The notes beneath the pieces are model-generated. The model saw only the letters and a program-made list of their open reading frames with translations. It was not told where the DNA came from and did no database searches. The translations under genes were made by a program, and so were the position numbers. From IMG/VR virus record IMGVR_UViG_3300036790_000261, positions 1 to 24,724 of that record: DNA of 24,724 nt, one strand, 5' to 3'. The DNA comes from a virus (taxonomy: Duplodnaviria; Heunggongvirae; Uroviricota; Caudoviricetes). Below, piece after piece: positions 13,475 through 24,724 of this stretch (position 1 is its first letter; each line of letters opens with the position of its first letter).

Positions 13475-13573
13475 CCGCAGTTAGTTTCGTACCGTAGTCT
13501 TTAACTGATGTAAGCCGCGGCCACGCAGTATGTGCTGGAGCCGGTCCGTTTCCTGAAAAGGGAAGGACTGGCA

Positions 13574-14935
13574 GTGGCTTCGGACCTTGCCAAGTCGCTT
13601 CACGACCAGGAGCTTGACGTCTGGGGCAAGATTCAGTCCCTCGCGCAGGCTGCTGCCACCGAGAAGCGCAACCTTACTGACGACGAGCAGCGCTCTTACG
13701 ACGCGATGCACGCTGAGCTCGACGGCGTTGACAAGCGCCTCAAGGACATCCTTGAGGGCGAGAAGCGCACCGCGGCGTCTGACGAGATGTTCGCCAGCCT
13801 TGAGCAGCGCACCTCGAACCCGGGGGCCAACCGCCGGCCGAACGAGTTCGAGATGGAGCTGCGCTCCTTCGTCGCCGGCGAGCGGCGCGCGATCGACATC
13901 GTGTCGACTGAGTCGCGGATCATGAACCGGCTTGCTACCGGCCGGCCCGTCAGCCCGTACGAGGTCCGTGTCCTGACTGACGCCTACGTGGCGCCTGGCT
14001 CGTTCACGAACCAGACCAACGCCGGCATCGTGCCGATTGACTTCTACGATCAATTGCTCTCGTACCTCATTGAGGTCTCGGGCGTGATGCAGACTGGCCC
14101 GACCGTGCTGAACACCGCGGGCGGCGAGCCGATCCAGGTTCCCATCGTGCAGCAGCACACCGGCCTGACCACGGCCGGCGCGCAGGTTGAGGTTTCCGCC
14201 GCGCAGTCGGCGACGCTGGCCACGGCTGACCCCGGCTTCGGCCAGAAGACGCTGACCGCGAACAAGTTCGGCATCCTGATCCAGGTGGCCCGCGAGCTGA
14301 TCGACGACTCCGGCGTCAACCTGCTCGGCTACCTGGCCATGTCGGCCGGCCGCGCGATCGGCAACCGGCTCGGCAACGCGCTGATCAACGGCGGCGACGG
14401 CATCTCCGGCTCGATCCTCGGTGCGCCCATCGCAGTGACCGGCGGCTCGGCCTCGGCGGTGTCCGGCACCAACCAGGTTGCGGGCGGCCCGTCGTACTCC
14501 AACCTGATCGACATGGAGTACAGCGTCATCGCGCCGTACCGCCAGTCGCGGTCCTGCTACTGGCTCGCGGCCGACCAGACGATGGGCTCGCTCCGGAAGC
14601 TGACCGACACCGTCGGCCGCCCCCTCTGGGAGCCCTCCACTGTCCTCGGCTCGCCTGACCTGCTTCTCGGCAAGCCGCTGGTCGCGGACCCGTTCATGCC
14701 GGCTTACGGCACCGCCGCGACGTCCATCGTGTTCGGCGACTTCAGCCAGTACTTCGTCCGGATGGTCGGCGGGGTGCGGTTCGAGCGGTCGGACGACTTC
14801 GCGTTCGGCAGCGACCTGGTGTCCTTCCGGGCCATCATCCGCGCGGACGGCCAGCTGATGAACCCGCCCGTCGCGGTCACCCCTGGCAACAAGGGCCAGC
14901 CCCTGGTCCTGTTCAAGGGCGGCGCCACGGCGTAA
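13574..14935 (+). CDS. Major capsid protein, HK97 fold with N-terminal delta (scaffold) domain (453 aa)
   Basis: GTG 13574 after GGAAGGA; coiled-coil N-terminus; SRELIDDS-like ARELIDDS, KL.DT.GRPLWEP, LLGKPLV, VFGDFSQY, RF.RSDD..F..D.V.FR...R.DG. Confidence 0.97.
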   Translation: MASDLAKSLHDQELDVWGKIQSLAQAAATEKRNLTDDEQRSYDAMHAELDGVDKRLKDILEGEKRTAASDEMFASLEQRTSNPGANRRPNEFEMELRSFVAGERRAIDIVSTESRIMNRLATGRPVSPYEVRVLTDAYVAPGSFTNQTNAGIVPIDFYDQLLSYLIEVSGVMQTGPTVLNTAGGEPIQVPIVQQHTGLTTAGAQVEVSAAQSATLATADPGFGQKTLTANKFGILIQVARELIDDSGVNLLGYLAMSAGRAIGNRLGNALINGGDGISGSILGAPIAVTGGSASAVSGTNQVAGGPSYSNLIDMEYSVIAPYRQSRSCYWLAADQTMGSLRKLTDTVGRPLWEPSTVLGSPDLLLGKPLVADPFMPAYGTAATSIVFGDFSQYFVRMVGGVRFERSDDFAFGSDLVSFRAIIRADGQLMNPPVAVTPGNKGQPLVLFKGGATA

Positions 14936-16834: not shown

Positions 16835-17248
16835 ATGATTCTCCTGTCCACCACGTTCGCCGACAACCTGCTGGGCACGGGCACTGAGGGCGTAGCCACG
16901 CAGATCGGCGGCGGCACCCTCATTATCTACAGCGGCACTGCCCCGACCGGCCCGAATGAGGGACTGTCCGGTAACACCGCGCTCGCTACCTTCACGTTCT
17001 CGGCGGCAGGCAGCCAGGGCTCCCCGGCGTCCGGTTCAATGACCCTGGTGTTCGCAGCCACCACGGTTACCGCAGCTGCGTCAGCTACCGCGACGTTCTT
17101 CCGGATTGCCAGCAGCGTGCCGACCGCCCTGATTCAGGGCACCGTCGGCACGTCAGGCGCCGACTTCAATCTCTCGTCCACCACGATCACTTCCGGCGAC
17201 AACGTTGCCATCACCGGCACGCCGACGATCTCCTGGACGGTGACCTGA
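16835..17248 (+). CDS. Probable virion structural protein (137 aa, beta-rich)
   Basis: GGTLIIYSGTAP..ALATFTFS..TATFFRI..IQGTVGTSGADFNLSSTTITSG, a pattern typical of small structural proteins that precede fibre genes. Confidence 0.75.
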   Translation: MILLSTTFADNLLGTGTEGVATQIGGGTLIIYSGTAPTGPNEGLSGNTALATFTFSAAGSQGSPASGSMTLVFAATTVTAAASATATFFRIASSVPTALIQGTVGTSGADFNLSSTTITSGDNVAITGTPTISWTVT

Positions 17249-17874
17249 TGTCCGGCCAGCAGTGGGTGTCGCTGCTTAATCCGGCGAGCCCGCGTGCTTC
17301 CGGCGCCGGCACCGTGCTCAACACCGCGGCGACCGCCACCATCTCACCCTGCCAGGCGGGCGCGCTGACGGCTGACGTCGCCACGGTTAACCCGGACGGC
17401 TACCCGGTGCTTGCCTGGTACCCCGGCCTGCTGATCCGGGTTCTCGCCCGCGGTTTCCTGACTACCACCGGAACCTCCACCACCGCTACCTGGCTGCTGC
17501 GCGCCAATAAGGGCAACAGCAACAGCTTTACGACCCTCGCCACCACGGTCGCCTTGACCACAGGTACCGGTTCGGTGACCGGCCTGCAGTGGAAGATAGA
17601 GGCTCTGCTGCGGTGCACGGCAGTCGGCAGCGGTACCAGCGGCAGCGTCTCGACGCAGGGCGAGTTTTGTATCCTCAGCGCGGTTACGGCTAACCCCGTC
17701 GGTCTAGCAGGCACGACGGGCAACGACACGAACATGCCGATGCCGAACATCTCGGGTGAGACGGCGCTAGGGCTAGACACCACGCAGGTCACGGGTATCG
17801 GCCTGGCGGCGACACTAGCAGGCGCGAACGCGACGGTTCAGTGCACGCAGTGGCTCGTGGAAGCCCTCGACTAA
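17248..17874 (+). CDS. Thr/Gly/Ala-rich probable virion protein (208 aa)
   Basis: TGATG coupling; beta-strand-like composition. Confidence 0.75.
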   Translation: MSGQQWVSLLNPASPRASGAGTVLNTAATATISPCQAGALTADVATVNPDGYPVLAWYPGLLIRVLARGFLTTTGTSTTATWLLRANKGNSNSFTTLATTVALTTGTGSVTGLQWKIEALLRCTAVGSGTSGSVSTQGEFCILSAVTANPVGLAGTTGNDTNMPMPNISGETALGLDTTQVTGIGLAATLAGANATVQCTQWLVEALD

Positions 17875-17898
17875 CGGCTGCCTAACTGGAGGTAGCCC

Positions 17899-19932
17899 GT
17901 GGCAATAACAGTCACCGCCACGATGAGCGGTACCACGGCCCTTGAGCACATCTACCTGTGGATCAGGGTCCTCACCGGGGCTACCGAGACCGGCGGCGCC
18001 AGCGTCTCAGGCGTTAACGCGTCCGGCGGTGCGAGCGTCACCGCGAGCCTGACCCCGAACTTCAGCAACTCGCTGCCCTGCTTCGCGATCACCGCGGACA
18101 ACTGGGGCGGCTCGTTCACCGCGGCGACGAACAACACGATCGACTCCGGCTCCAACGACGCAGACGACTGGGGCGCCGGGTTCGGCCGCTACACCGGTAC
18201 CGTCACGGCGAGCTCAGCGCTGACGTTCGGCGCGTCGGGGGTCGGCGGCGGCACTGACTACACGTCCTGGGCGTGCTACGAGGTCCCGTCTACCGGGGGC
18301 AGCACCCCGTCGATCGACGCCTCGTCCCCGGCGCTGGCCGCAGCGACCGGCTCGCTCGTCAAGACAGTTACCTCGGCTAGCTTCACCCCGCCCGCCGGGT
18401 CGGTTGTCGTCGCGATGGTCTGCGGCGGCGGCAACGGCACGTCCGGGCCGTTCATCATGACGGTGACCGACACCAGCGTGATGACCTGGACGCAGCGGGC
18501 CGGGTCGCCGACAATTGCCGACCAGGACACCTTCGTCTTCACGGCTACTGTCCCGGGTGCCGCCGGGGCTCCGGCTCTCCCGGTGCCCCTGCTGCTGGTA
18601 CCGCCCGGCCGCAGCTCGCCGATGTCTCGCCGGCTGCTGACGACGCTATTGCCGCTGAGCGCGCAAACCGAGTCCGGCGCTTTCACTGTCCCGCTGCCTG
18701 CCCTGGCGACCTCCCTGACTGGCGTGATAGAGCACCAGGGGTCGTTCAGCGTGCCGCTGCCCGCTCCTGTCACCGCGCTGACCGGCACGGCCCAGCAGAC
18801 TGAGTCCGGCGTTTTCGCCGTCCCGCTGCCTGCCCTGGCGACGGCCCTGACGGGCGTGGTCGTCCATACCGGGTCCCTCAGCCTTCCGCTGCCTGCCCCG
18901 GCTACCTCGCTAACGGGTACGGCCCAGCACACCGAGTCAGGCCCCCTGGCGATACCGCTGCCTTCACCTGTCACGGCGCTGACTGGCAAGCTTGGTCACA
19001 CGGGCAGCCTCTCCGTGGCGCTGCCTTCACCCGTGACCTCGCTAACGGGTACGGCCCAGCACACTGAATCTGGCGCGTTCACCATCACGCTGCCCGGCCC
19101 GGCGACTTCGCTAACCGGAATCCAGGGCACGGCAGGCTCATTCACGATCACGCTGCCCGCCCCCGCGACCTCGCTAACCGGAACCGCCCAGCACACTGCG
19201 TCCGGGTCGCTCAGCATCCCGCTGCCCGCCCCCGCCACGTCGCTGTCGGGTAAGACCGGGCACGCCGGCAGCTTCTCCGTACTACTTCCGGCGCCTGCCA
19301 CCGCGCTGTCGGGTACGGCTCAGCACACCGAGTCCGGCGCATTCGCGATCACGCTGCCCGTCCTGGTGCTGCCCCTGACGGGAACTTCCGGGACGCCGGG
19401 GACGGTAACCGGCGCGTTCGTGATCGTGCTGCCGCCTGGCGTCCGCCAGGAGACAGAGTCCGGTGCGCTCACCCTGGCACTGCCGGTCCTCAAGACTGCG
19501 CTGACCGGGTCTGTCGGGCGGCACGGGGCCTTCGCGATCACGCTGCCTGCAGCCCGCACTGCCCTGGCGGCGCACGTGCCGGTCACTACCTCCGGGGCAC
19601 TCGCCATCGTCTTGCCGCCGCCGGTCACCGCGCTGTCGGGACACGCGCCTGCCACCGTATCCGGGCAGCCAGCGCTCACCCTGCCGTCGCCTGCCACCGG
19701 TCTCACCGGCGTGATCACGCATCTCGGCCTGTTCAGCGTGTCCCTCGACGTGCCTGCAGACCACCTGACCCGGTTTGAGATGTTCGGCTGCGAGTCCCGG
19801 GTAAGCGTCGCCGCTCGGCTGCCCGCTCTCGTCACGACCCTGGCGGCACGCGTTCCTGACCAGCCGGGCTACCGGACCAGCTACCTCGCCGGCCGGTGGA
19901 TCTCCGTGCGCCTGCCTAAGAAGGAGGCCTGA
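17899..19932 (+). CDS. Fibre-like virion protein: N-terminal beta domain plus Ser/Thr/Pro-rich repeat stalk (677 aa)
   Basis: SD GGAGG; PPGRSSP linker; five 44-aa repeats then degenerate copies. Confidence 0.85.
   Translation: MAITVTATMSGTTALEHIYLWIRVLTGATETGGASVSGVNASGGASVTASLTPNFSNSLPCFAITADNWGGSFTAATNNTIDSGSNDADDWGAGFGRYTGTVTASSALTFGASGVGGGTDYTSWACYEVPSTGGSTPSIDASSPALAAATGSLVKTVTSASFTPPAGSVVVAMVCGGGNGTSGPFIMTVTDTSVMTWTQRAGSPTIADQDTFVFTATVPGAAGAPALPVPLLLVPPGRSSPMSRRLLTTLLPLSAQTESGAFTVPLPALATSLTGVIEHQGSFSVPLPAPVTALTGTAQQTESGVFAVPLPALATALTGVVVHTGSLSLPLPAPATSLTGTAQHTESGPLAIPLPSPVTALTGKLGHTGSLSVALPSPVTSLTGTAQHTESGAFTITLPGPATSLTGIQGTAGSFTITLPAPATSLTGTAQHTASGSLSIPLPAPATSLSGKTGHAGSFSVLLPAPATALSGTAQHTESGAFAITLPVLVLPLTGTSGTPGTVTGAFVIVLPPGVRQETESGALTLALPVLKTALTGSVGRHGAFAITLPAARTALAAHVPVTTSGALAIVLPPPVTALSGHAPATVSGQPALTLPSPATGLTGVITHLGLFSVSLDVPADHLTRFEMFGCESRVSVAARLPALVTTLAARVPDQPGYRTSYLAGRWISVRLPKKEA
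18664..19323 (+). repeat. Five tandem 132-bp (44-aa) coding repeats, each two ~22-aa G[SA][FL]xxxLPxPxTxLTG sub-units
   Basis: Units start [QH]T[EA]SG at 18664, 18796, 18928, 19060 and 19192; a sixth degenerate unit starts at 19324. Confidence 0.9.
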
Positions 19933-19933
19933 C

Positions 19934-20221
19934 GTGCACTGGCTCGGCTGGCTTATCGGGATCTACCCGGTGCCGCAGGGGACGTCCCCTATGTACCAGC
20001 TATGGTCCGGGTTCATCCCGGCGCTGGCCGTGCTTTCCCTCGCCGGCGGCCTCTGGGGGCACTTCAAGAGAATCAACTGCCACGTGCACGGCTGCTGGCG
20101 GATCGGCCGTTACGACCTTCAGGGGTTTAAAGTCTGCCACGCTCACTACCCTGACGACCGGGTGAGGCGAGGCGGCGTTGCCTGGGACCACCTGCGGGAA
20201 AAGATTGACGAGCGGCCGTGA
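19934..20221 (+). CDS. Membrane protein with CH..GC..C..H motif (95 aa)
   Basis: TM FIPALAVLSLAGGLWG followed by NCHVHGCWRIGR..VCHAH; GTGA overlap with the channel gene. Confidence 0.7.
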   Translation: MHWLGWLIGIYPVPQGTSPMYQLWSGFIPALAVLSLAGGLWGHFKRINCHVHGCWRIGRYDLQGFKVCHAHYPDDRVRRGGVAWDHLREKIDERP

Positions 20222-20556
20222 ACGTCCACCACCAGCGGGCGTTGCTAGTCCTGGTGCTGACCCTTGCCCTCGACGTCGCTCTCGGCGTGCTGTATGGCCT
20301 GGCCGATCACGTGCACGTCCTGCACGGCATGTACTGCGCTCTCGGTACTGCGACCACCGTCGGCTGCGATATTTTGCCTGCCAACGGCTTCGCCTACGTG
20401 CTGTCCGCGGTCATGATGGTCACTGTCGTCCCGCTGTTTGCTTCAGTTTTCGCGTTTTTCACCAGCGGCCTGACGGCTGACCACGTTGATACGCTGACCG
20501 ACAAGCAGACCCAGGACATCAAGGAGCACGTGAATGACACTGTTCGCAAGTCGTGA
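20218..20556 (+). CDS. Miniature two-TM KcsA-like (Ion_trans_2) channel with non-canonical filter (112 aa)
   Basis: TM1, pore helix LHGMYCALGTATT, VGC-D, ILPAN, TM2; aligns by eye to KcsA RALWWSVETATTVGYGDLYPVT. Confidence 0.8.
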   Translation: MNVHHQRALLVLVLTLALDVALGVLYGLADHVHVLHGMYCALGTATTVGCDILPANGFAYVLSAVMMVTVVPLFASVFAFFTSGLTADHVDTLTDKQTQDIKEHVNDTVRKS

Positions 20557-21253: not shown

Positions 21254-22324
21254 GTGCGTATTCTCGCGAGTCACGACGGTGGTACCGGGTGCGCCCATTA
21301 CCGGATGATCGTGCCGCTGACCGCGGTGAACGAGCTCGCCGACGGCGTCAGCGTGACCTTCCGCTCGGGCGGCGACAAGGCGATGAACAACCCGCACCCG
21401 ATGGTGAGGATCGCTGACGCGGACGAGGTTGACGTTGTTGTGGCGCAGCGGGCGAGTGCGTACGCGGGGCTCGGCCTGTGGCGGCGGTGGGGGAGTAACC
21501 CGTGGCGGCGCACCGTCTACGAGAACGACGACGACGTCTTCAGCATTACCCCGGAGAACACCGCGGCCTGGTCAACCTTCAAGGAGGGAACCGAGGTCCG
21601 CGAGGCGGTGCTGCGCTACTGCACGACAGCGAACCTGATCACCACGACCAGCCCGCACCTGGGTGACCGCTTCCGCGAGATGCTCGGCAACCGGGTGCCC
21701 GTCGAGGTGCTGCCCAATTACGTCCCCGGCTGGGCGCTCAGCCTGCCGCGCGACACTCTTGACCGGCGGCTGCGCGTCGGGTGGATGGGCGGCTCGTCGC
21801 ACGCCCTGGACGTCATGGAAGCCGCGCCGAGCGTTCGCCGGTTCATGCAGCGCTTCCCCGGGTGGGACCTGTTCATCAACGGCGTCGACTACCGGGACAA
21901 GTTCAAGGCTGAGCCCGAGCGGTCGTTTTTCGTCCCCTGGATACACGTCACTGACCACCCGCAGGTCTACTACCGGGCCATCGACTTCGACATCGGCATC
22001 TGCCCGCTGAAGTCCACCCAGTTCAGCCGGTCTAAGAGCTGGGTTAAGGCACTGGAGTACTTCAGCCGCGGCATCCCGGTTGTCGCCAGCGACGTCGAGC
22101 CCTACCGGCGGTTCATCGACCACGGCGTTAACGGCTTCCTTTGCAAGACCGGCCACGAGTGGCTGAAGTACCTGTCCCTGCTTGCCAGCGACGAAGAGCT
22201 CCGCCTGAAGATGGGCGAGGCGGCGAAAGCGAAGGCACGCGAGAACACCATCGAGACCCATTATGCTGAGTGGGTCAACGCGTACCGCATGCTGTTCCCG
22301 GTTGGATGGGAGTACAAGGGGTGA
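21254..22324 (+). CDS. GT-B fold glycosyltransferase (GT4/group 1-like), 356 aa
   Basis: GCAHYRMIVP, VYENDDD, VLPNY, VGWMG, DIGICPL..FSRSKSWVKALEY..GIPVVASD..Y..HGVNGFL. Confidence 0.92.
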   Translation: MRILASHDGGTGCAHYRMIVPLTAVNELADGVSVTFRSGGDKAMNNPHPMVRIADADEVDVVVAQRASAYAGLGLWRRWGSNPWRRTVYENDDDVFSITPENTAAWSTFKEGTEVREAVLRYCTTANLITTTSPHLGDRFREMLGNRVPVEVLPNYVPGWALSLPRDTLDRRLRVGWMGGSSHALDVMEAAPSVRRFMQRFPGWDLFINGVDYRDKFKAEPERSFFVPWIHVTDHPQVYYRAIDFDIGICPLKSTQFSRSKSWVKALEYFSRGIPVVASDVEPYRRFIDHGVNGFLCKTGHEWLKYLSLLASDEELRLKMGEAAKAKARENTIETHYAEWVNAYRMLFPVGWEYKG

Positions 22325-22689
22325 ACTACGAGCCCAAGGTGTACGTGAAGGGCGCCCTGCCGTCCTGCCGCGACCAAGGCTGCCGAGCCCCAGAGCTAGC
22401 AGCGCTGGCACGTCAGCTGTCTAACCACGAACGCGCAGTTCTAGACCTACTGAACATAAAAGGGGAGCAGATGAAGCCGACGCAGGCGCTGTGGTGCGAG
22501 CAGGGGGGCCACGCGTTCAGTGAGAAGGACACCGGTGTCCAGGTGCTCACGATCGCTGGCCGGGGCCCGGACGGGCAGACAGTAGAGGAAACGCGAACCA
22601 GTTGCGGGGAGTGCGCGGCCCTCGCTAAGACCAAGCTCGGCAAGGCGCGCAACAGCCAGCCCTCTCAGCTTCCGCCTAGCGACTCGTGA
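22321..22689 (+). CDS. Hypothetical protein, C-x4-H..CxxC putative Zn site (alternative start ATG 22471)
   Basis: GTGA overlaps at both ends; AAGGGGAG before 22471. Confidence 0.6.
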   Translation: MNYEPKVYVKGALPSCRDQGCRAPELAALARQLSNHERAVLDLLNIKGEQMKPTQALWCEQGGHAFSEKDTGVQVLTIAGRGPDGQTVEETRTSCGECAALAKTKLGKARNSQPSQLPPSDS

Positions 22690-23582
22690 GGGCACTGGTA
22701 ACCGGGTCCAGCGGCTTCGTCGGCACGTACCTCGCTAAGTCACTGACGGACGACGGCTGGGACGTTACCGGGTTTAACCTGCGCGCCGGGCAGGACGTTC
22801 GTAATTACGACCAGATGCGCAACGTCATGGAAACCGTTCAGCCCGACCAGGTTTTCCACCTCGCGGCCGTCGCGTGGCCCGGCGAGTCGATCACCGACCC
22901 GAGACGCACGTTCGACGTTAACGTGACCGGGGCGCTGAATGTGCTGGAGGCCGTGTGGCAGACCGGTTCTGACGCTCGCATCCTGCTCGCCGGGACCAGC
23001 GAGGAGTACGGTTACGAAGGCTGGCCCGACGGGTACACCCTGACTGAGGACAGCCCCGTGCGCCCCACCACCCCGTACGGTGTCACTAAGCTGGCCGCCA
23101 CCACGCTCGGCATGACCTACGCTCGCCGTCACCACCTGCGCGTTGTCGCCACCCGTGCGTTCAACCACACCGGCTGGGGACGTCAGGCGGTCAACGCCGA
23201 GTCGGCGTTCGCCCGGCGGATCGTCGCCGTCGAGCAGGGCCTGGCCGACCGGGTTGAGCACGGCCCGCTGGCCCCGGTACGCGATTTCAGCAACGTTCGC
23301 GACGTCGTGCGCGCCTACCGGCTGCTGATCACCCAGGAGCCCGGCATCTACAACATCGGCTCGGGACGGCCTGTCAGCATGAAGGACGTGCTCGGCATGC
23401 TTACCGCTGCTTCAACCCGCCAGAGCATCAAGCTGACGGAGCGTTCCGGTCTCGGCCGCCCTGATAACGCGGGCACCTTCCCGGACGTCAGTTTCGCGAA
23501 GCTCCGGGCACTCGGCTGGGCCCCCGAGTTCGCCCTGGAAGACACCCTGGCTGAGGTACTGAGTTACTGGAGGCACCGGTGA
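22686..23582 (+). CDS. Extended SDR, GDP-mannose 4,6-dehydratase / GDP-4-keto-6-deoxymannose reductase (GMD/RMD)-like, 298 aa
   Basis: TGSSGFVG Rossmann motif, FHLAA, GTSEEYG, PYGVTK (YxxxK), RAFNHTG, VRDF..VRDVVRAY. Confidence 0.92.
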   Translation: MRALVTGSSGFVGTYLAKSLTDDGWDVTGFNLRAGQDVRNYDQMRNVMETVQPDQVFHLAAVAWPGESITDPRRTFDVNVTGALNVLEAVWQTGSDARILLAGTSEEYGYEGWPDGYTLTEDSPVRPTTPYGVTKLAATTLGMTYARRHHLRVVATRAFNHTGWGRQAVNAESAFARRIVAVEQGLADRVEHGPLAPVRDFSNVRDVVRAYRLLITQEPGIYNIGSGRPVSMKDVLGMLTAASTRQSIKLTERSGLGRPDNAGTFPDVSFAKLRALGWAPEFALEDTLAEVLSYWRHR

Positions 23583-24724
23583 GGAACTGCCGCAGTTGCG
23601 ACGGCAGTCTTGAGGACGTCTACGACCTCGGCCTGCACCGCCTGCCGGACTTCACAGAACCAGGTACCCCGGCCGGCCCGCCGCAGCCGCTGCACCTGGT
23701 GACGTGCTCCCGGTGCACCCTGCTCCAGCTAGCAGACACCACTCCGCGCGCCGACCTTTACCACGAGCGGTACGGATTCAAGTCCGGGGTGAACGAGGCT
23801 GTCCGCGCCGACCTGGCTGACGTTGCGACCTGGGCGCTGGAGCACGTGACGCGCCTTCCGCTAGCCAAGTGGCTGGACATCGCCTGCAACGACGGCACGC
23901 TGCTGTCCAACGTCCCGAACCAGGTGTACCGGGCCGGCGTGGACCCGCTCGCGCAGTTCGCCGCGGAGGCCAGTGAGCACGCCGACCGGATTGTCAGCGA
24001 CTACTTCAAGCCTGAGTATTTCGACGTTGCCTTCGACGTGATCACGTCGGTGTCAGTGTTCTACGACCTTGATGACCCGAATGAGTTTGTCGCCGGCGTC
24101 GCCAGTGTCCTGGCCCCGGACGGGGTCTGGGTCATCCAGCAGAACTACGCCCTGGAGATGCTCCGGCTGAACGCGGTCGACAACGTGTGCCACGAGCACG
24201 TCACCTACTTCTCCGTCACCTCGATGCTGCCCCTGCTGGAGCGGCACGGCCTGGAGATGACCGAGGTTGCCTACAGCCCGGTTAACGGCGGCTGCTTCCG
24301 CGCCCTGGTCACGCGCAAGGGCCGTCGGCCAGCTCACCCCGGTGTCGCTAAGGCTGTTGCGGCTGAGGCTGTGCTCGCCGACCCCGCCGCCCTGCGCCGC
24401 TGGGCCCTGGACGTGCAGTACGAGCTGCAGCGCACCCGGCGGGCCGTCGAGGACGTTAAGGCCAGCGGCGGGCAGACTTACGTTTACGGGGCGTCTACCC
24501 GGGGCGGCACGATCCTTCAGCTGCTCGGCACGGGGCCGGAGCTGCTGCCGTACGCTGTCGAGCGCCAGGCCGCGAAGGTCGGCAAGGTCATGGCCGCGAC
24601 GGGTATCCCGATCATCAGTGAAGAGCAGATGCGGGCCAGCCCGCCCGCCGCCCTGCTGGTCAGCCCGTGGTTCTTCCGGGACGTGTTCACCGCCCGCGAG
24701 GCCGCCTACCTAGGCGCCGGGGGG
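23579..24724 (+). CDS. SAM-dependent NDP-hexose 3-C-methyltransferase (TcaB9/MtmC/TylC3/EryBIII-like), 3' truncated by the window end
   Basis: Hand-translated, open for 382 codons, absent from ORF track: Zn site C4xxC7/C43xxC46, LDIACNDGTLL, CHEHVTYFS, YGASTRG, GIPIISEE, LLVSPWFF. Confidence 0.92.
   Translation, partial: MRNCRSCDGSLEDVYDLGLHRLPDFTEPGTPAGPPQPLHLVTCSRCTLLQLADTTPRADLYHERYGFKSGVNEAVRADLADVATWALEHVTRLPLAKWLDIACNDGTLLSNVPNQVYRAGVDPLAQFAAEASEHADRIVSDYFKPEYFDVAFDVITSVSVFYDLDDPNEFVAGVASVLAPDGVWVIQQNYALEMLRLNAVDNVCHEHVTYFSVTSMLPLLERHGLEMTEVAYSPVNGGCFRALVTRKGRRPAHPGVAKAVAAEAVLADPAALRRWALDVQYELQRTRRAVEDVKASGGQTYVYGASTRGGTILQLLGTGPELLPYAVERQAAKVGKVMAATGIPIISEEQMRASPPAALLVSPWFFRDVFTAREAAYLGAGG

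Follow-up and report, generated by a model that had tools for sequence, protein, structure and literature searches.

A late-operon glycan cassette of an uncultured actinomycete phage, possibly for making and attaching a branched C-methyl deoxysugar

In this study, we analyzed a window of 24,724 nucleotides (the whole stretch of DNA presented) from an uncultured phage of soil-type actinomycetes together with its complete 122-kb genome (CheckV completeness 100%). A gene cassette at positions 21254-24724 and its downstream continuation, flanked by the capsid and tail genes of the genome, may serve to make and attach a branched C-methyl deoxysugar. Judged from the sequences, we give this scheme of a late-operon glycan cassette as a whole an even chance of being correct, while the formation of a branched methyl-deoxysugar, taken for itself, is quite probable.

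As described in the earlier note, the four genes in the window are linked by GTGA start/stop overlaps at 22321, 22686 and 23579, which were read straight from the DNA (Table 1). The methyltransferase gene (C-MT), said there to run off the window, is indeed open at the window end, with residues 1-382 covered, and complete in the genome, whose coordinates continue the window numbering. Reading the downstream sequence for further glycosyltransferases, which had been proposed as a check, revealed two GT-A glycosyltransferases and a second methyltransferase, with additional 4-base overlaps at 24766, 25356 and 26183. The location inside the virion gene region was likewise confirmed, with terminase-to-capsid genes upstream and adaptor and tail genes downstream. 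No match to phage records was obtained for the region by megablast, and a promoter and terminator scan yielded nothing exceeding shuffled controls.

Table 1. Features of the cassette and of the surrounding virion gene region.
Feature	Position	Strand	Length (aa)	Description
Large terminase	5078			upstream of cassette
Portal	9127			upstream of cassette
Protease	11516			upstream of cassette
Major capsid	13532			upstream of cassette
Thr/Ser/Gly-rich repeat proteins	17899-19932 and 28210-29715			on either side of cassette
GT1	21254..22324	+	356	GT-B fold (Glycos_transf_1) glycosyltransferase
Small Cys/His protein	22321..22689	+	122	conserved, directly after GT1
SDR	22686..23582	+	298	RMD-like extended SDR
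C-MT	23579..24769 (window part 23579..24724)	+	396	putative sugar C-methyltransferase
GT2a	24766-25359		197	GT-A glycosyltransferase, beyond window end
GT2b	25356-25985		209	family-2 glycosyltransferase, GT-A type, beyond window end
CDCGC-motif ORF	26007-26186		59	beyond window end
MT2	26183-26758		191	SAM-methyltransferase-like protein, beyond window end
Head-tail adaptor	29712			downstream of cassette
Tail terminator	32919			downstream of cassette
Major-tail-like gene	34994			downstream of cassette

By family assignment, C-MT is a sugar C-methyltransferase of the TcaB9/MtmC type, predicted to perform SAM-dependent C-methylation of an NDP-4-keto sugar. The protein has the complete three-domain architecture of zinc domain PF08421, class I SAM domain and C-terminal PF08484, with all Pfam matches above the cut-offs (PF08421 1.3e-7, PF13489 1.8e-13, PF08484 1e-29), and matches TcaB9 (7e-40) and MtmC (2e-39) end to end (range for TcaB9, MtmC and KijD1 7e-40 to 5e-36). 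In the alignment, its cysteines C4, C7, C43 and C46 fall on the zinc-site CxxC pairs of TcaB9, and they are kept in the clade, and Y65, E206 and H207 correspond to TcaB9 Tyr76 and Glu224-His225. Among 41 sampled clade members, the four zinc cysteines and the SAM motif are conserved throughout, as are Y65 (41/41) and E206 (41/41), and H207 is present in 40. The earlier assignment to this enzyme type thus held for the full-length match and the three domains but has to be qualified in two respects: the C-MT clade, which is mostly phage-borne, stands apart from the classical enzymes in the tree with 100/100 support, and in place of TcaB9 H181 and Y222 the phage clade has Y162-D163 and C204 throughout, whereas classical enzymes carry x-His and Tyr at these sites. 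His181 and Tyr222 are the residues changed in the TcaB9 mutant structures PDB 4e2w and 4e2x. Due to their replacement, the chemistry or the substrate of C-MT may differ. A reading of the His/Tyr changes as a simple swap was rejected, MtmC also having a His just before Glu-His; they are replacements only. The clade-wide replacements and the fully supported split could also indicate methylation at C5 or of another acceptor altogether; we consider this quite improbable, given that the Glu-His pair and Tyr65 are retained together with the zinc and SAM sites and that the gene is constantly coupled with 4-keto-sugar SDRs and glycosyltransferases. A tblastn search with C-MT gave no actinophage match, the best matches being jumbo-phage and cyanophage genes with 27-33% identity. 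At E <= 1e-20, its metagenomic homologues number more than 1,400, and the top 120 of them are 55-70% identical.

The preceding gene encodes an extended SDR with a GxxGxxG motif and a Ser/Thr-Tyr-Lys triad according to its sequence and the 2pk3 alignment (G7xxG10xxG13, T104-S105-E106, Y131xxxK135, FNHTGWGRQ; Pfam GDP_Man_Dehyd 8.8e-50, Epimerase 4.9e-46). It had been called GMD/RMD-like in the earlier note, and the second half of this name proved appropriate: PDB 2pk3, a GDP-6-deoxy-D-lyxo-4-hexulose reductase, was matched with 159.9 bits (E 7.7e-46) and the Pseudomonas RMD 6x3b with 117.2 bits (8.3e-33), compared with 100.9 bits for the best dehydratase and ~82 bits (~1e-22) for GMDs. The score with the gmd model (82.3 bits) does not reach the equivalog cut-off of 415, identity to true GMDs is 27-28%, and the NHESPRRG-type GMD motif, found as FNHESPRRG in an Actinomadura GMD and as FNHEGPGRRG in the GMD of the related phage contig L014, is missing, with FNHTGWGRQ there instead. 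Also, JGI names the SDR homologues GDP-4-dehydro-6-deoxy-D-mannose reductase. We infer that the SDR is an RMD-type 4-ketoreductase reducing NDP-4-keto-6-deoxyhexoses at C4 and, being RMD-like, not the producer of the 4-keto substrate. Some dehydratase activity may be present, as RMD and GMD are close kin and the Ser/Thr-x-Glu motif as well as one Arg of the dehydratase 'PRR' motif are kept (Arg166 aligns with its second Arg, where RMDs have Gln). Pseudomonas GMD has been reported to be bifunctional, and an SDR acting as both 4,6-dehydratase and 4-reductase would make the phage autonomous, needing just host GDP-mannose. In view of the low gmd score and identity, the missing motif and the separate GMD in L014, this is about as improbable as a C-MT of other specificity.

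The SDR is the sole SDR in the complete genome, in which neither a nucleotidyltransferase (NTP_transferase) nor a sugar dehydratase was found. With one SDR, of RMD-like type, and no nucleotidyltransferase, the phage depends on a host sugar nucleotide, and the former idea that it makes its own sugar without host sugars had to be abandoned. Probably, a host 4-keto-6-deoxy sugar nucleotide is diverted rather than a sugar built from scratch, and this nucleotide is probably the product of host GMD, an enzyme present in 88/151 sampled Actinomycetia genomes (a tally in which G030 and G043, both flagged as unpublished, are counted). An Actinomadura gene (59% identity) forms the sister branch to the phage C-MT clade and is flanked by a GMD (413.9 bits, cut-off 415) and by a Nudix gene with GDP-mannose mannosyl hydrolase as best match. 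In L014, a GMD-like gene (326.7 bits) directly follows C-MT, and in the viral contigs L009-L012 GMD is located 1.5 kb upstream of it. Because the nearest relatives of C-MT directly adjoin true GMD genes, GDP is the likelier carrier, which we hold with fair but not high confidence. Proximity to GMD is not specific to the clade, since three classical-type C-MT genes are located 5-13 kb away from a GMD; therefore, a rule separating GDP-type from dTDP-type enzymes by their active sites was dropped. In a dTDP route, C-MT and SDR would use dTDP-4-keto-6-deoxy-D-glucose from host RmlB to form dTDP-6-deoxy-3-C-methylhexose. RmlB is present in 9/9 actinomycete genomes checked, all solved relatives (TcaB9, MtmC, KijD1) use dTDP-sugars, and activity of the family was shown solely on TDP-sugars as of PMC3539893. 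This route is nevertheless unlikely, as the best SDR matches are GDP-specific RMDs and the nearest C-MT relatives adjoin GMD, not RmlB.

The RMD-like SDR adjoins C-MT in 9 of 12 loci, a GT2a-type gene is located within 3 kb in 10 of the 12, and GT2a adjoins SDR-C-MT in most related loci. In the sister phage L040 (identity 83% for the capsid, 79% for GT1, 71% for MT2 and 68% for GT2b), GT2a, SDR and C-MT are missing together, and their exact slot is occupied by a 231-aa protein and an unrelated SDR. The three genes co-travel as a module. More tentatively, and with clearly less than even confidence, this could represent a mobile virion-sugar module, composed of a GDP-4-keto-6-deoxymannose-using C-MT clade with rebuilt active site, an RMD-like reductase and a GT-A enzyme, that is swapped among sister phages in a diversification like that of O-antigen serotypes. 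If the glycan-cassette scheme is true, the module would be one of several interchangeable sugar modules within a single phage lineage, pointing to selection for virion glycan diversity.

Among the transferases, GT1 belongs to Glycos_transf_1 (PF00534, 5e-10) and matches phrog_7162 'glycosyltransferase' with 5.6e-38. As its highest 19-residue hydropathy is only 1.18, it has no membrane helix. In a tblastn search of 50,697 phage records (E <= 1e-5), solely Streptomyces and Arthrobacter phage glycosyltransferases were matched by GT1 (25-32% identity), and no mycobacteriophage and no Che8/Corndog glycosyltransferase. The AlphaFold model of GT2a (pLDDT 89) matched TarP, SpsA and WrtF in Foldseek (prob 1.00, TM 0.6-0.68), GT2b was assigned to PF00535 (1.6e-16), and MT2 showed a weak Methyltransf_25 match and the motif LDVGCGPG. 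The small ORF between GT1 and SDR, noted previously for its putative zinc motif, gave no match in family searches and is, according to its conservation, a real gene in its 122-aa form starting at 22321: 30 homologues of ~120-130 aa align across almost the entire length with invariant C16, C21, W58, C59, H64, C95 and C98, and the gene has the same place immediately 3′ of GT1 in both L040 and an 84-kb sister contig. A 72-aa short form (ATG at 22472, strong ribosome-binding site) was rejected because the homologues span all 122 aa. The Cys/His pattern suggests zinc binding, and the protein might assist GT1 as a zinc-binding accessory. Its AlphaFold model was poor (pLDDT 64), and the score of 0.00 for a predicted complex with GT1 speaks neither for nor against binding.

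Virion proteins are favored as acceptor because of the position of the cassette among virion genes, and we rate this target as slightly better than an even bet. In relatives, the cassette is found beside genes for the capsid, the tape measure or the tail. That phages modify the surface glycans of their hosts is well known from Gtr systems, and a membrane polysaccharide-synthase cassette is present elsewhere in the genome (GT2 at 62790), so that the sugar might also be placed on the infected-cell envelope or a secreted polymer for receptor masking or superinfection exclusion. We regard this as rather improbable, as no membrane glycosyltransferase, flippase or polyprenyl-phosphate transferase is encoded in the cassette, its enzymes are without exception predicted to be soluble, and the cassette is linked into the virion operon, with virion-gene neighbors in relatives. 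Phage glycosyltransferases and sugar epimerases hypermodify 5hmC (bioRxiv 10.1101/2023.12.21.572611), a precedent for decoration of hydroxymethylated bases of the phage DNA by the glycosyltransferases. For the present phage this is extremely improbable: a thymidylate-synthase-type hydroxymethylase (PF00303) and a C5 DNA methyltransferase (PF00145) are absent from the genome, and the cassette is located among virion and not replication genes. PF12851 (Tet_JBP) stands outside this negative result, its control giving no match. The points counted for a virion target were the location between capsid and adaptor genes, the virion neighbors in relatives, the soluble enzymes and the flanking Thr/Ser/Gly-rich repeat proteins.

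With virion proteins as the preferred target, the pathway would start from a host NDP-4-keto-6-deoxyhexose, most likely GDP-4-keto-6-deoxy-D-mannose formed by host GMD. C-MT would methylate C3, or less likely C5, with SAM as donor, and would act before the SDR because the methylated carbon must neighbor the 4-keto group. Reduction at C4 by the SDR would then yield NDP-6-deoxy-3-C-methylhexose, the configuration of which is not predictable. GT2a, co-inherited with SDR and C-MT, would move the methyl-sugar onto a glycan. GT1, together with the small Cys/His protein, and GT2b would begin and lengthen this glycan, which MT2 might also methylate. The acceptor would most likely be at least one virion protein.

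The new part is the branched-sugar branch. To our knowledge, branched C-methyl sugars occur in antibiotics of actinomycetes and in a small number of surface glycans of bacteria, not in phages. In agreement with the earlier note, which knew of no characterised phage pathway of this kind, none was found in the literature searched, and no paper there combined phage and 3-C-methyltransferase. If the scheme is true, phages rework sugar nucleotides of the host to furnish their coat with rare sugars, and the clade is a large and probably GDP-dependent part of a family of enzymes employed in natural-product glycodiversification.

Compared with TcaB9, MtmC, KijD1 and TylC3 (PDB 3ndi, 4rv9, 5t64), C-MT is alike in full-length similarity (E ~1e-40), the three domains, the zinc Cys4 site, the SAM motif, Tyr76 and Glu224-His225 (TcaB9 numbering), but differs in its ~30% identity, separate clade (100/100) and replaced His181 and Tyr222. 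While those enzymes belong to dTDP-sugar antibiotic clusters, C-MT is phage-borne, RMD-coupled and GMD-linked. The RMDs of Aneurinibacillus (2pk3) and Pseudomonas (6x3b), the best solved matches of the SDR, have a similar length and share the motifs SEEYG, PYGV(S/T)K and FNH-x-G-x-G with it, whereas the SDR has Arg166 for the RMD Gln, its activity is predicted and its substrate would already be C3-methylated. Giant viruses possess autonomous sugar-nucleotide pathways (chlorovirus GMD, rare sugars of Megavirinae) and likewise encode nucleotide-sugar tailoring enzymes for glycosylating their own particles, but they infect eukaryotic hosts, their enzymes are unrelated, and we know of no C-methyl-branched sugar in them.

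Virion glycosylation has been described for the mycobacteriophages Che8, Corndog and Myrna (PMC12363180 and PMC13313380, citing Freeman et al. 2023). As far as described there, soluble phage glycosyltransferases and methyltransferases, believed to decorate capsid or tail proteins, are common to both, and in the present phage, too, soluble glycosyltransferases are encoded among or next to virion genes. Those systems are described in these citations as glycosyltransferases plus O-methyltransferases, to which the present cassette adds C-methylation and 4-reduction; GT1 has no detectable similarity to the Che8/Corndog glycosyltransferases at E <= 1e-5. In Coxiella burnetii, a GDP-virenose pathway of GMD, the C-methyltransferase CBU_0691 and a reductase has been predicted (PMC3539893, PMC3204966). 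CBU_0691 is reported to be 44% identical to TylCIII and is therefore of the classical type, and the pathway differs in being bacterial, serving the LPS O-antigen and itself being only predicted. Its logic is the same as that proposed here, leading from GDP-mannose via the 4-keto-6-deoxy sugar, C3 methylation and 4-reduction to a 6-deoxy-3-C-methylhexose.

The virus record comprises 122,331 bases, was rated complete by CheckV and is covered by the window for its first 24,724 bases; GC content is about 66%. From GT1 to C-MT, the first four genes of the cassette, start and stop codons overlap in the four bases GTGA (at 22321, 22686 and 23579), and the coupled chain extends to two further glycosyltransferases and a second methyltransferase-like gene, MT2. 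On its 5′ side the cassette is preceded by genes for the large terminase, portal, protease and major capsid protein; on its 3′ side come genes for the head-tail adaptor, the tail terminator and the tail. Thereby, the earlier note was right in describing four GTGA-chained genes in the virion region with a C-MT leaving the window, as judged by the overlaps, the Pfam and PHROG matches and the flanking capsid and tail genes; the additional glycosyltransferases which it proposed to look for downstream are present as GT2a and GT2b.

Cassette genes and neighbouring features (window numbering, continued along the genome)
Feature	Coordinates	Strand	Remarks
Thr/Ser/Gly-rich proteins	16835–19932		5′ side of cassette
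677-aa repeat protein	17899–19932		~22-aa repeats, TESGAF..PLP..T.LTG
Small ORF	20218–20556		just 5′ of GT1
GT1, GT-B glycosyltransferase	21254–22324	+	Pfam and PHROG matches
Small 122-aa protein	22321–22689	+	
SDR	22686–23582	+	Pfam and PHROG matches back family
C-MT, 396 aa	23579–24769	+	extends beyond window; all three family domains present
GT2a	24766–25359		in coupled chain
GT2b	25356–25985		in coupled chain
59-aa ORF	26007–26186		CDCGC motif; GTGA-coupled to MT2
MT2	26183–26758		in coupled chain
501-aa Thr/Ser/Gly-rich protein	28210–29715		3′ side of cassette; ATATGTALQVPS-like repeats
HNH endonuclease	30768–31277		phrog_99, 6.8e-31; between head-tail adaptor and tail genes
409-aa CgeB-like protein	33320–34549 (L002:12320–13549)		Glyco_trans_1_2, 1.6e-8, above cut-off

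The 409-aa protein, located between the tail terminator and a major-tail-like gene and found with 45% identity in contig L004, is an additional glycosyltransferase amid the tail genes. The small ORF preceding GT1 is conserved in position, and its counterparts in the sister phage L040 and in an 84-kb contig are annotated as Ion_trans_2 (ion channel). The 59-aa ORF corresponds to a 63-aa gene at the same position in L040.

The C-MT aligned end to end with TcaB9, MtmC and KijD1, NDP-hexose 3-C-methyltransferases with solved structures (E 7e-40 to 5e-36). The four zinc cysteines and the SAM motif (DIACNDG) are kept, as are Tyr65 and Glu206-His207, equivalent to Tyr76 and Glu224-His225 of TcaB9. 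Tyr162-Asp163 replace His181 of TcaB9 and Cys204 replaces Tyr222, the two residues altered in the deposited mutant structures 4e2w and 4e2x. An alignment of 59 family members was cleanly divided at these positions: the classical type, including MtmC and three paralogues from one Actinomadura genome, has x-His and Tyr, while the 41 close relatives sampled around the phage C-MT all have Tyr162, and Asp163 and Cys204 occur in 35/41 each. Also, the maximum-likelihood tree separated phage-type and classical-type C-MTs (support 100/100) and united the close relatives in a clade (99/96) with a single Actinomadura craniellae gene as sister. Family members occur in 70 of 400 evenly sampled Actinomycetia genomes; identity above 40% to the phage C-MT was found only in the Actinomadura centre genome (G001) searched beside them. 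A database search gave 1,412 matches at E ≤ 1e-20, the best 120 of which (55–70% identity) are nearly all metagenomic, many on contigs of 90–120 kb. No close copy was detected among isolated phages in the collection of phage records. At one related locus (L019:7236–12196), a 922-aa fusion glycosyltransferase (Glycos_transf_1 and Glyco_transf_17) lies 5′ of the C-MT, and the SDR following it seems broken into 45-aa and 209-aa pieces.

For the SDR, which the earlier note had called GMD/RMD-like, only the RMD part held. Its closest solved relatives are two GDP-6-deoxy-4-hexulose reductases (159.9 and 117.2 bits), compared with 100.9 bits for the best dehydratase and about 82 bits for GMDs, and homologues are named GDP-4-dehydro-6-deoxy-D-mannose reductase by the JGI pipeline. 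Since it is the sole SDR of the genome and no nucleotidyltransferase was found there, the 4-keto substrate must be supplied by the host, and the proposal that the phage makes its sugar independently of host sugars would not hold, unless the SDR is bifunctional, acting as 4,6-dehydratase and 4-reductase. Such a double function is unlikely, as the SDR carries FNHTGWGRQ where true GMDs have FNHESPRRG and scores 82 bits on the gmd equivalog model, far below the cut-off of 415. Of 151 Actinomycetia genomes sampled, 88 were positive for GMD; G030 and G043, both flagged unpublished, are included in this tally and bear on no other claim.

GMD genes were found near the closest C-MT relatives in three independent contexts. 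In A. craniellae the order is Nudix, C-MT (59% identity to the phage C-MT) and GMD (413.9 bits), the Nudix gene matching GDP-mannose mannosyl hydrolase best, if weakly. A related phage contig (L014/L015) has a GMD-like gene 3′ of the C-MT (326.7 bits; 54% identity to the Actinomadura GMD), and in more distant viral contigs (L009–L012) a GMD lies 1.5 kb upstream. Judged from gene neighbourhood, this adjacency and the RMD-like partner favour GDP-4-keto-6-deoxymannose as the probable C-MT substrate. A dTDP-sugar would be in line with all biochemically studied family members, which use dTDP-sugars (PMC3539893), and three classical-type C-MT genes also lie 5–13 kb from a GMD; we nevertheless consider it the less likely carrier type and favour the GDP-linked substrate.

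The A. craniellae trio (G001:C40:220683–222841) is chromosomal and lies in no evident antibiotic cluster or prophage; three classical paralogues occur elsewhere in the genome. The trio may make a branched sugar, linked to GDP, that is destined for a glycan of the cell. The cassette of the 90-kb contig L014 (6438–16386, after the capsid gene) comprises SDR, 233-aa protein, C-MT, GMD-like gene, 212-aa protein, 427-aa DRL_cat-domain protein, GT2, methyltransferase, DUF8361, GT2 and GT1. This cassette is much larger and suggests a fuller, more elaborate sugar pathway.

Among 12 loci with a C-MT of the phage-type clade, the RMD-like SDR directly adjoins the C-MT in nine, and a GT2a-type gene lies within 3 kb in ten. 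GT2a has only a weak Pfam match; its confident structure model (pLDDT 89) predicts a clear GT-A fold like those of TarP, SpsA, a mannosyltransferase and the GDP-fucose enzyme WrtF, and GT2a is likely the transferase for the module's sugar product. L040 shares the capsid protein (83% amino acid identity), GT1 (79%), small protein (59%), GT2b (68%), MT2 (71%) and downstream repeat protein (67%), but in L040 the slot between small protein and GT2b, occupied here by SDR, C-MT and GT2a, holds a 231-aa protein together with an unrelated SDR. Another sister contig has SDR, C-MT, cupin, GT2, FkbM methyltransferase and a second GT2 in this slot. The sugar-tailoring genes are therefore a replaceable insert in a conserved glycosylation scaffold. 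The gene of the small protein always follows GT1, and in 30 homologues Cys16, Cys21, Trp58, Cys59, His64, Cys95 and Cys98 are invariant. The small protein may bind zinc and act together with GT1; its structure model was poor.

Virion proteins are the favoured acceptor, because the enzymes are predicted to be soluble, the cassette is translationally chained within the virion operon, relatives carry it beside virion genes (behind the capsid gene, on either side of the tape-measure gene, or beside adaptor/tail genes), and Thr/Ser/Gly-rich repeat proteins flank it on both sides. These flanking proteins are candidate acceptors, as is the capsid protein (13532–14935). L040 keeps the 501-aa protein, but within the portion of L040 examined the 677-aa protein had no match. 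Modification of the host envelope is possible. Glycosylation of phage DNA is unlikely because neither a hydroxymethylase nor a C5 methyltransferase was found in the genome.

No isolated phage has a capsid protein more than 30% identical to the one encoded here. In Rhizomonospora bruguierae (GCA_018397995.1, contig BBQH01000015.1), the module is also found in a prophage, where GT1, genes of 50 and 243 aa, SDR (53% identity) and C-MT are flanked by replication genes (SSB, DnaB) on one side and a scaffold gene on the other; this prophage is a possible cultivable model. As both this prophage and the module's closest cellular relative, from Actinomadura, fit, a filamentous actinomycete would be a consistent host.

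The earlier note knew of no characterised phage pathway for branched sugars, and our literature searches likewise found no paper connecting phages with sugar 3-C-methyltransferases. Virion glycosylation is described for mycobacteriophages (cited in PMC12363180 and PMC13313380), and the virion-acceptor reading of this cassette fits. Actinophage virion glycosylation cassettes are already known; new are the nucleotide-sugar branch of C-MT and predicted 4-reductase in a phage, the distinct, largely phage-borne C-MT clade suggested by sequence comparison, and the modular exchange of this branch.
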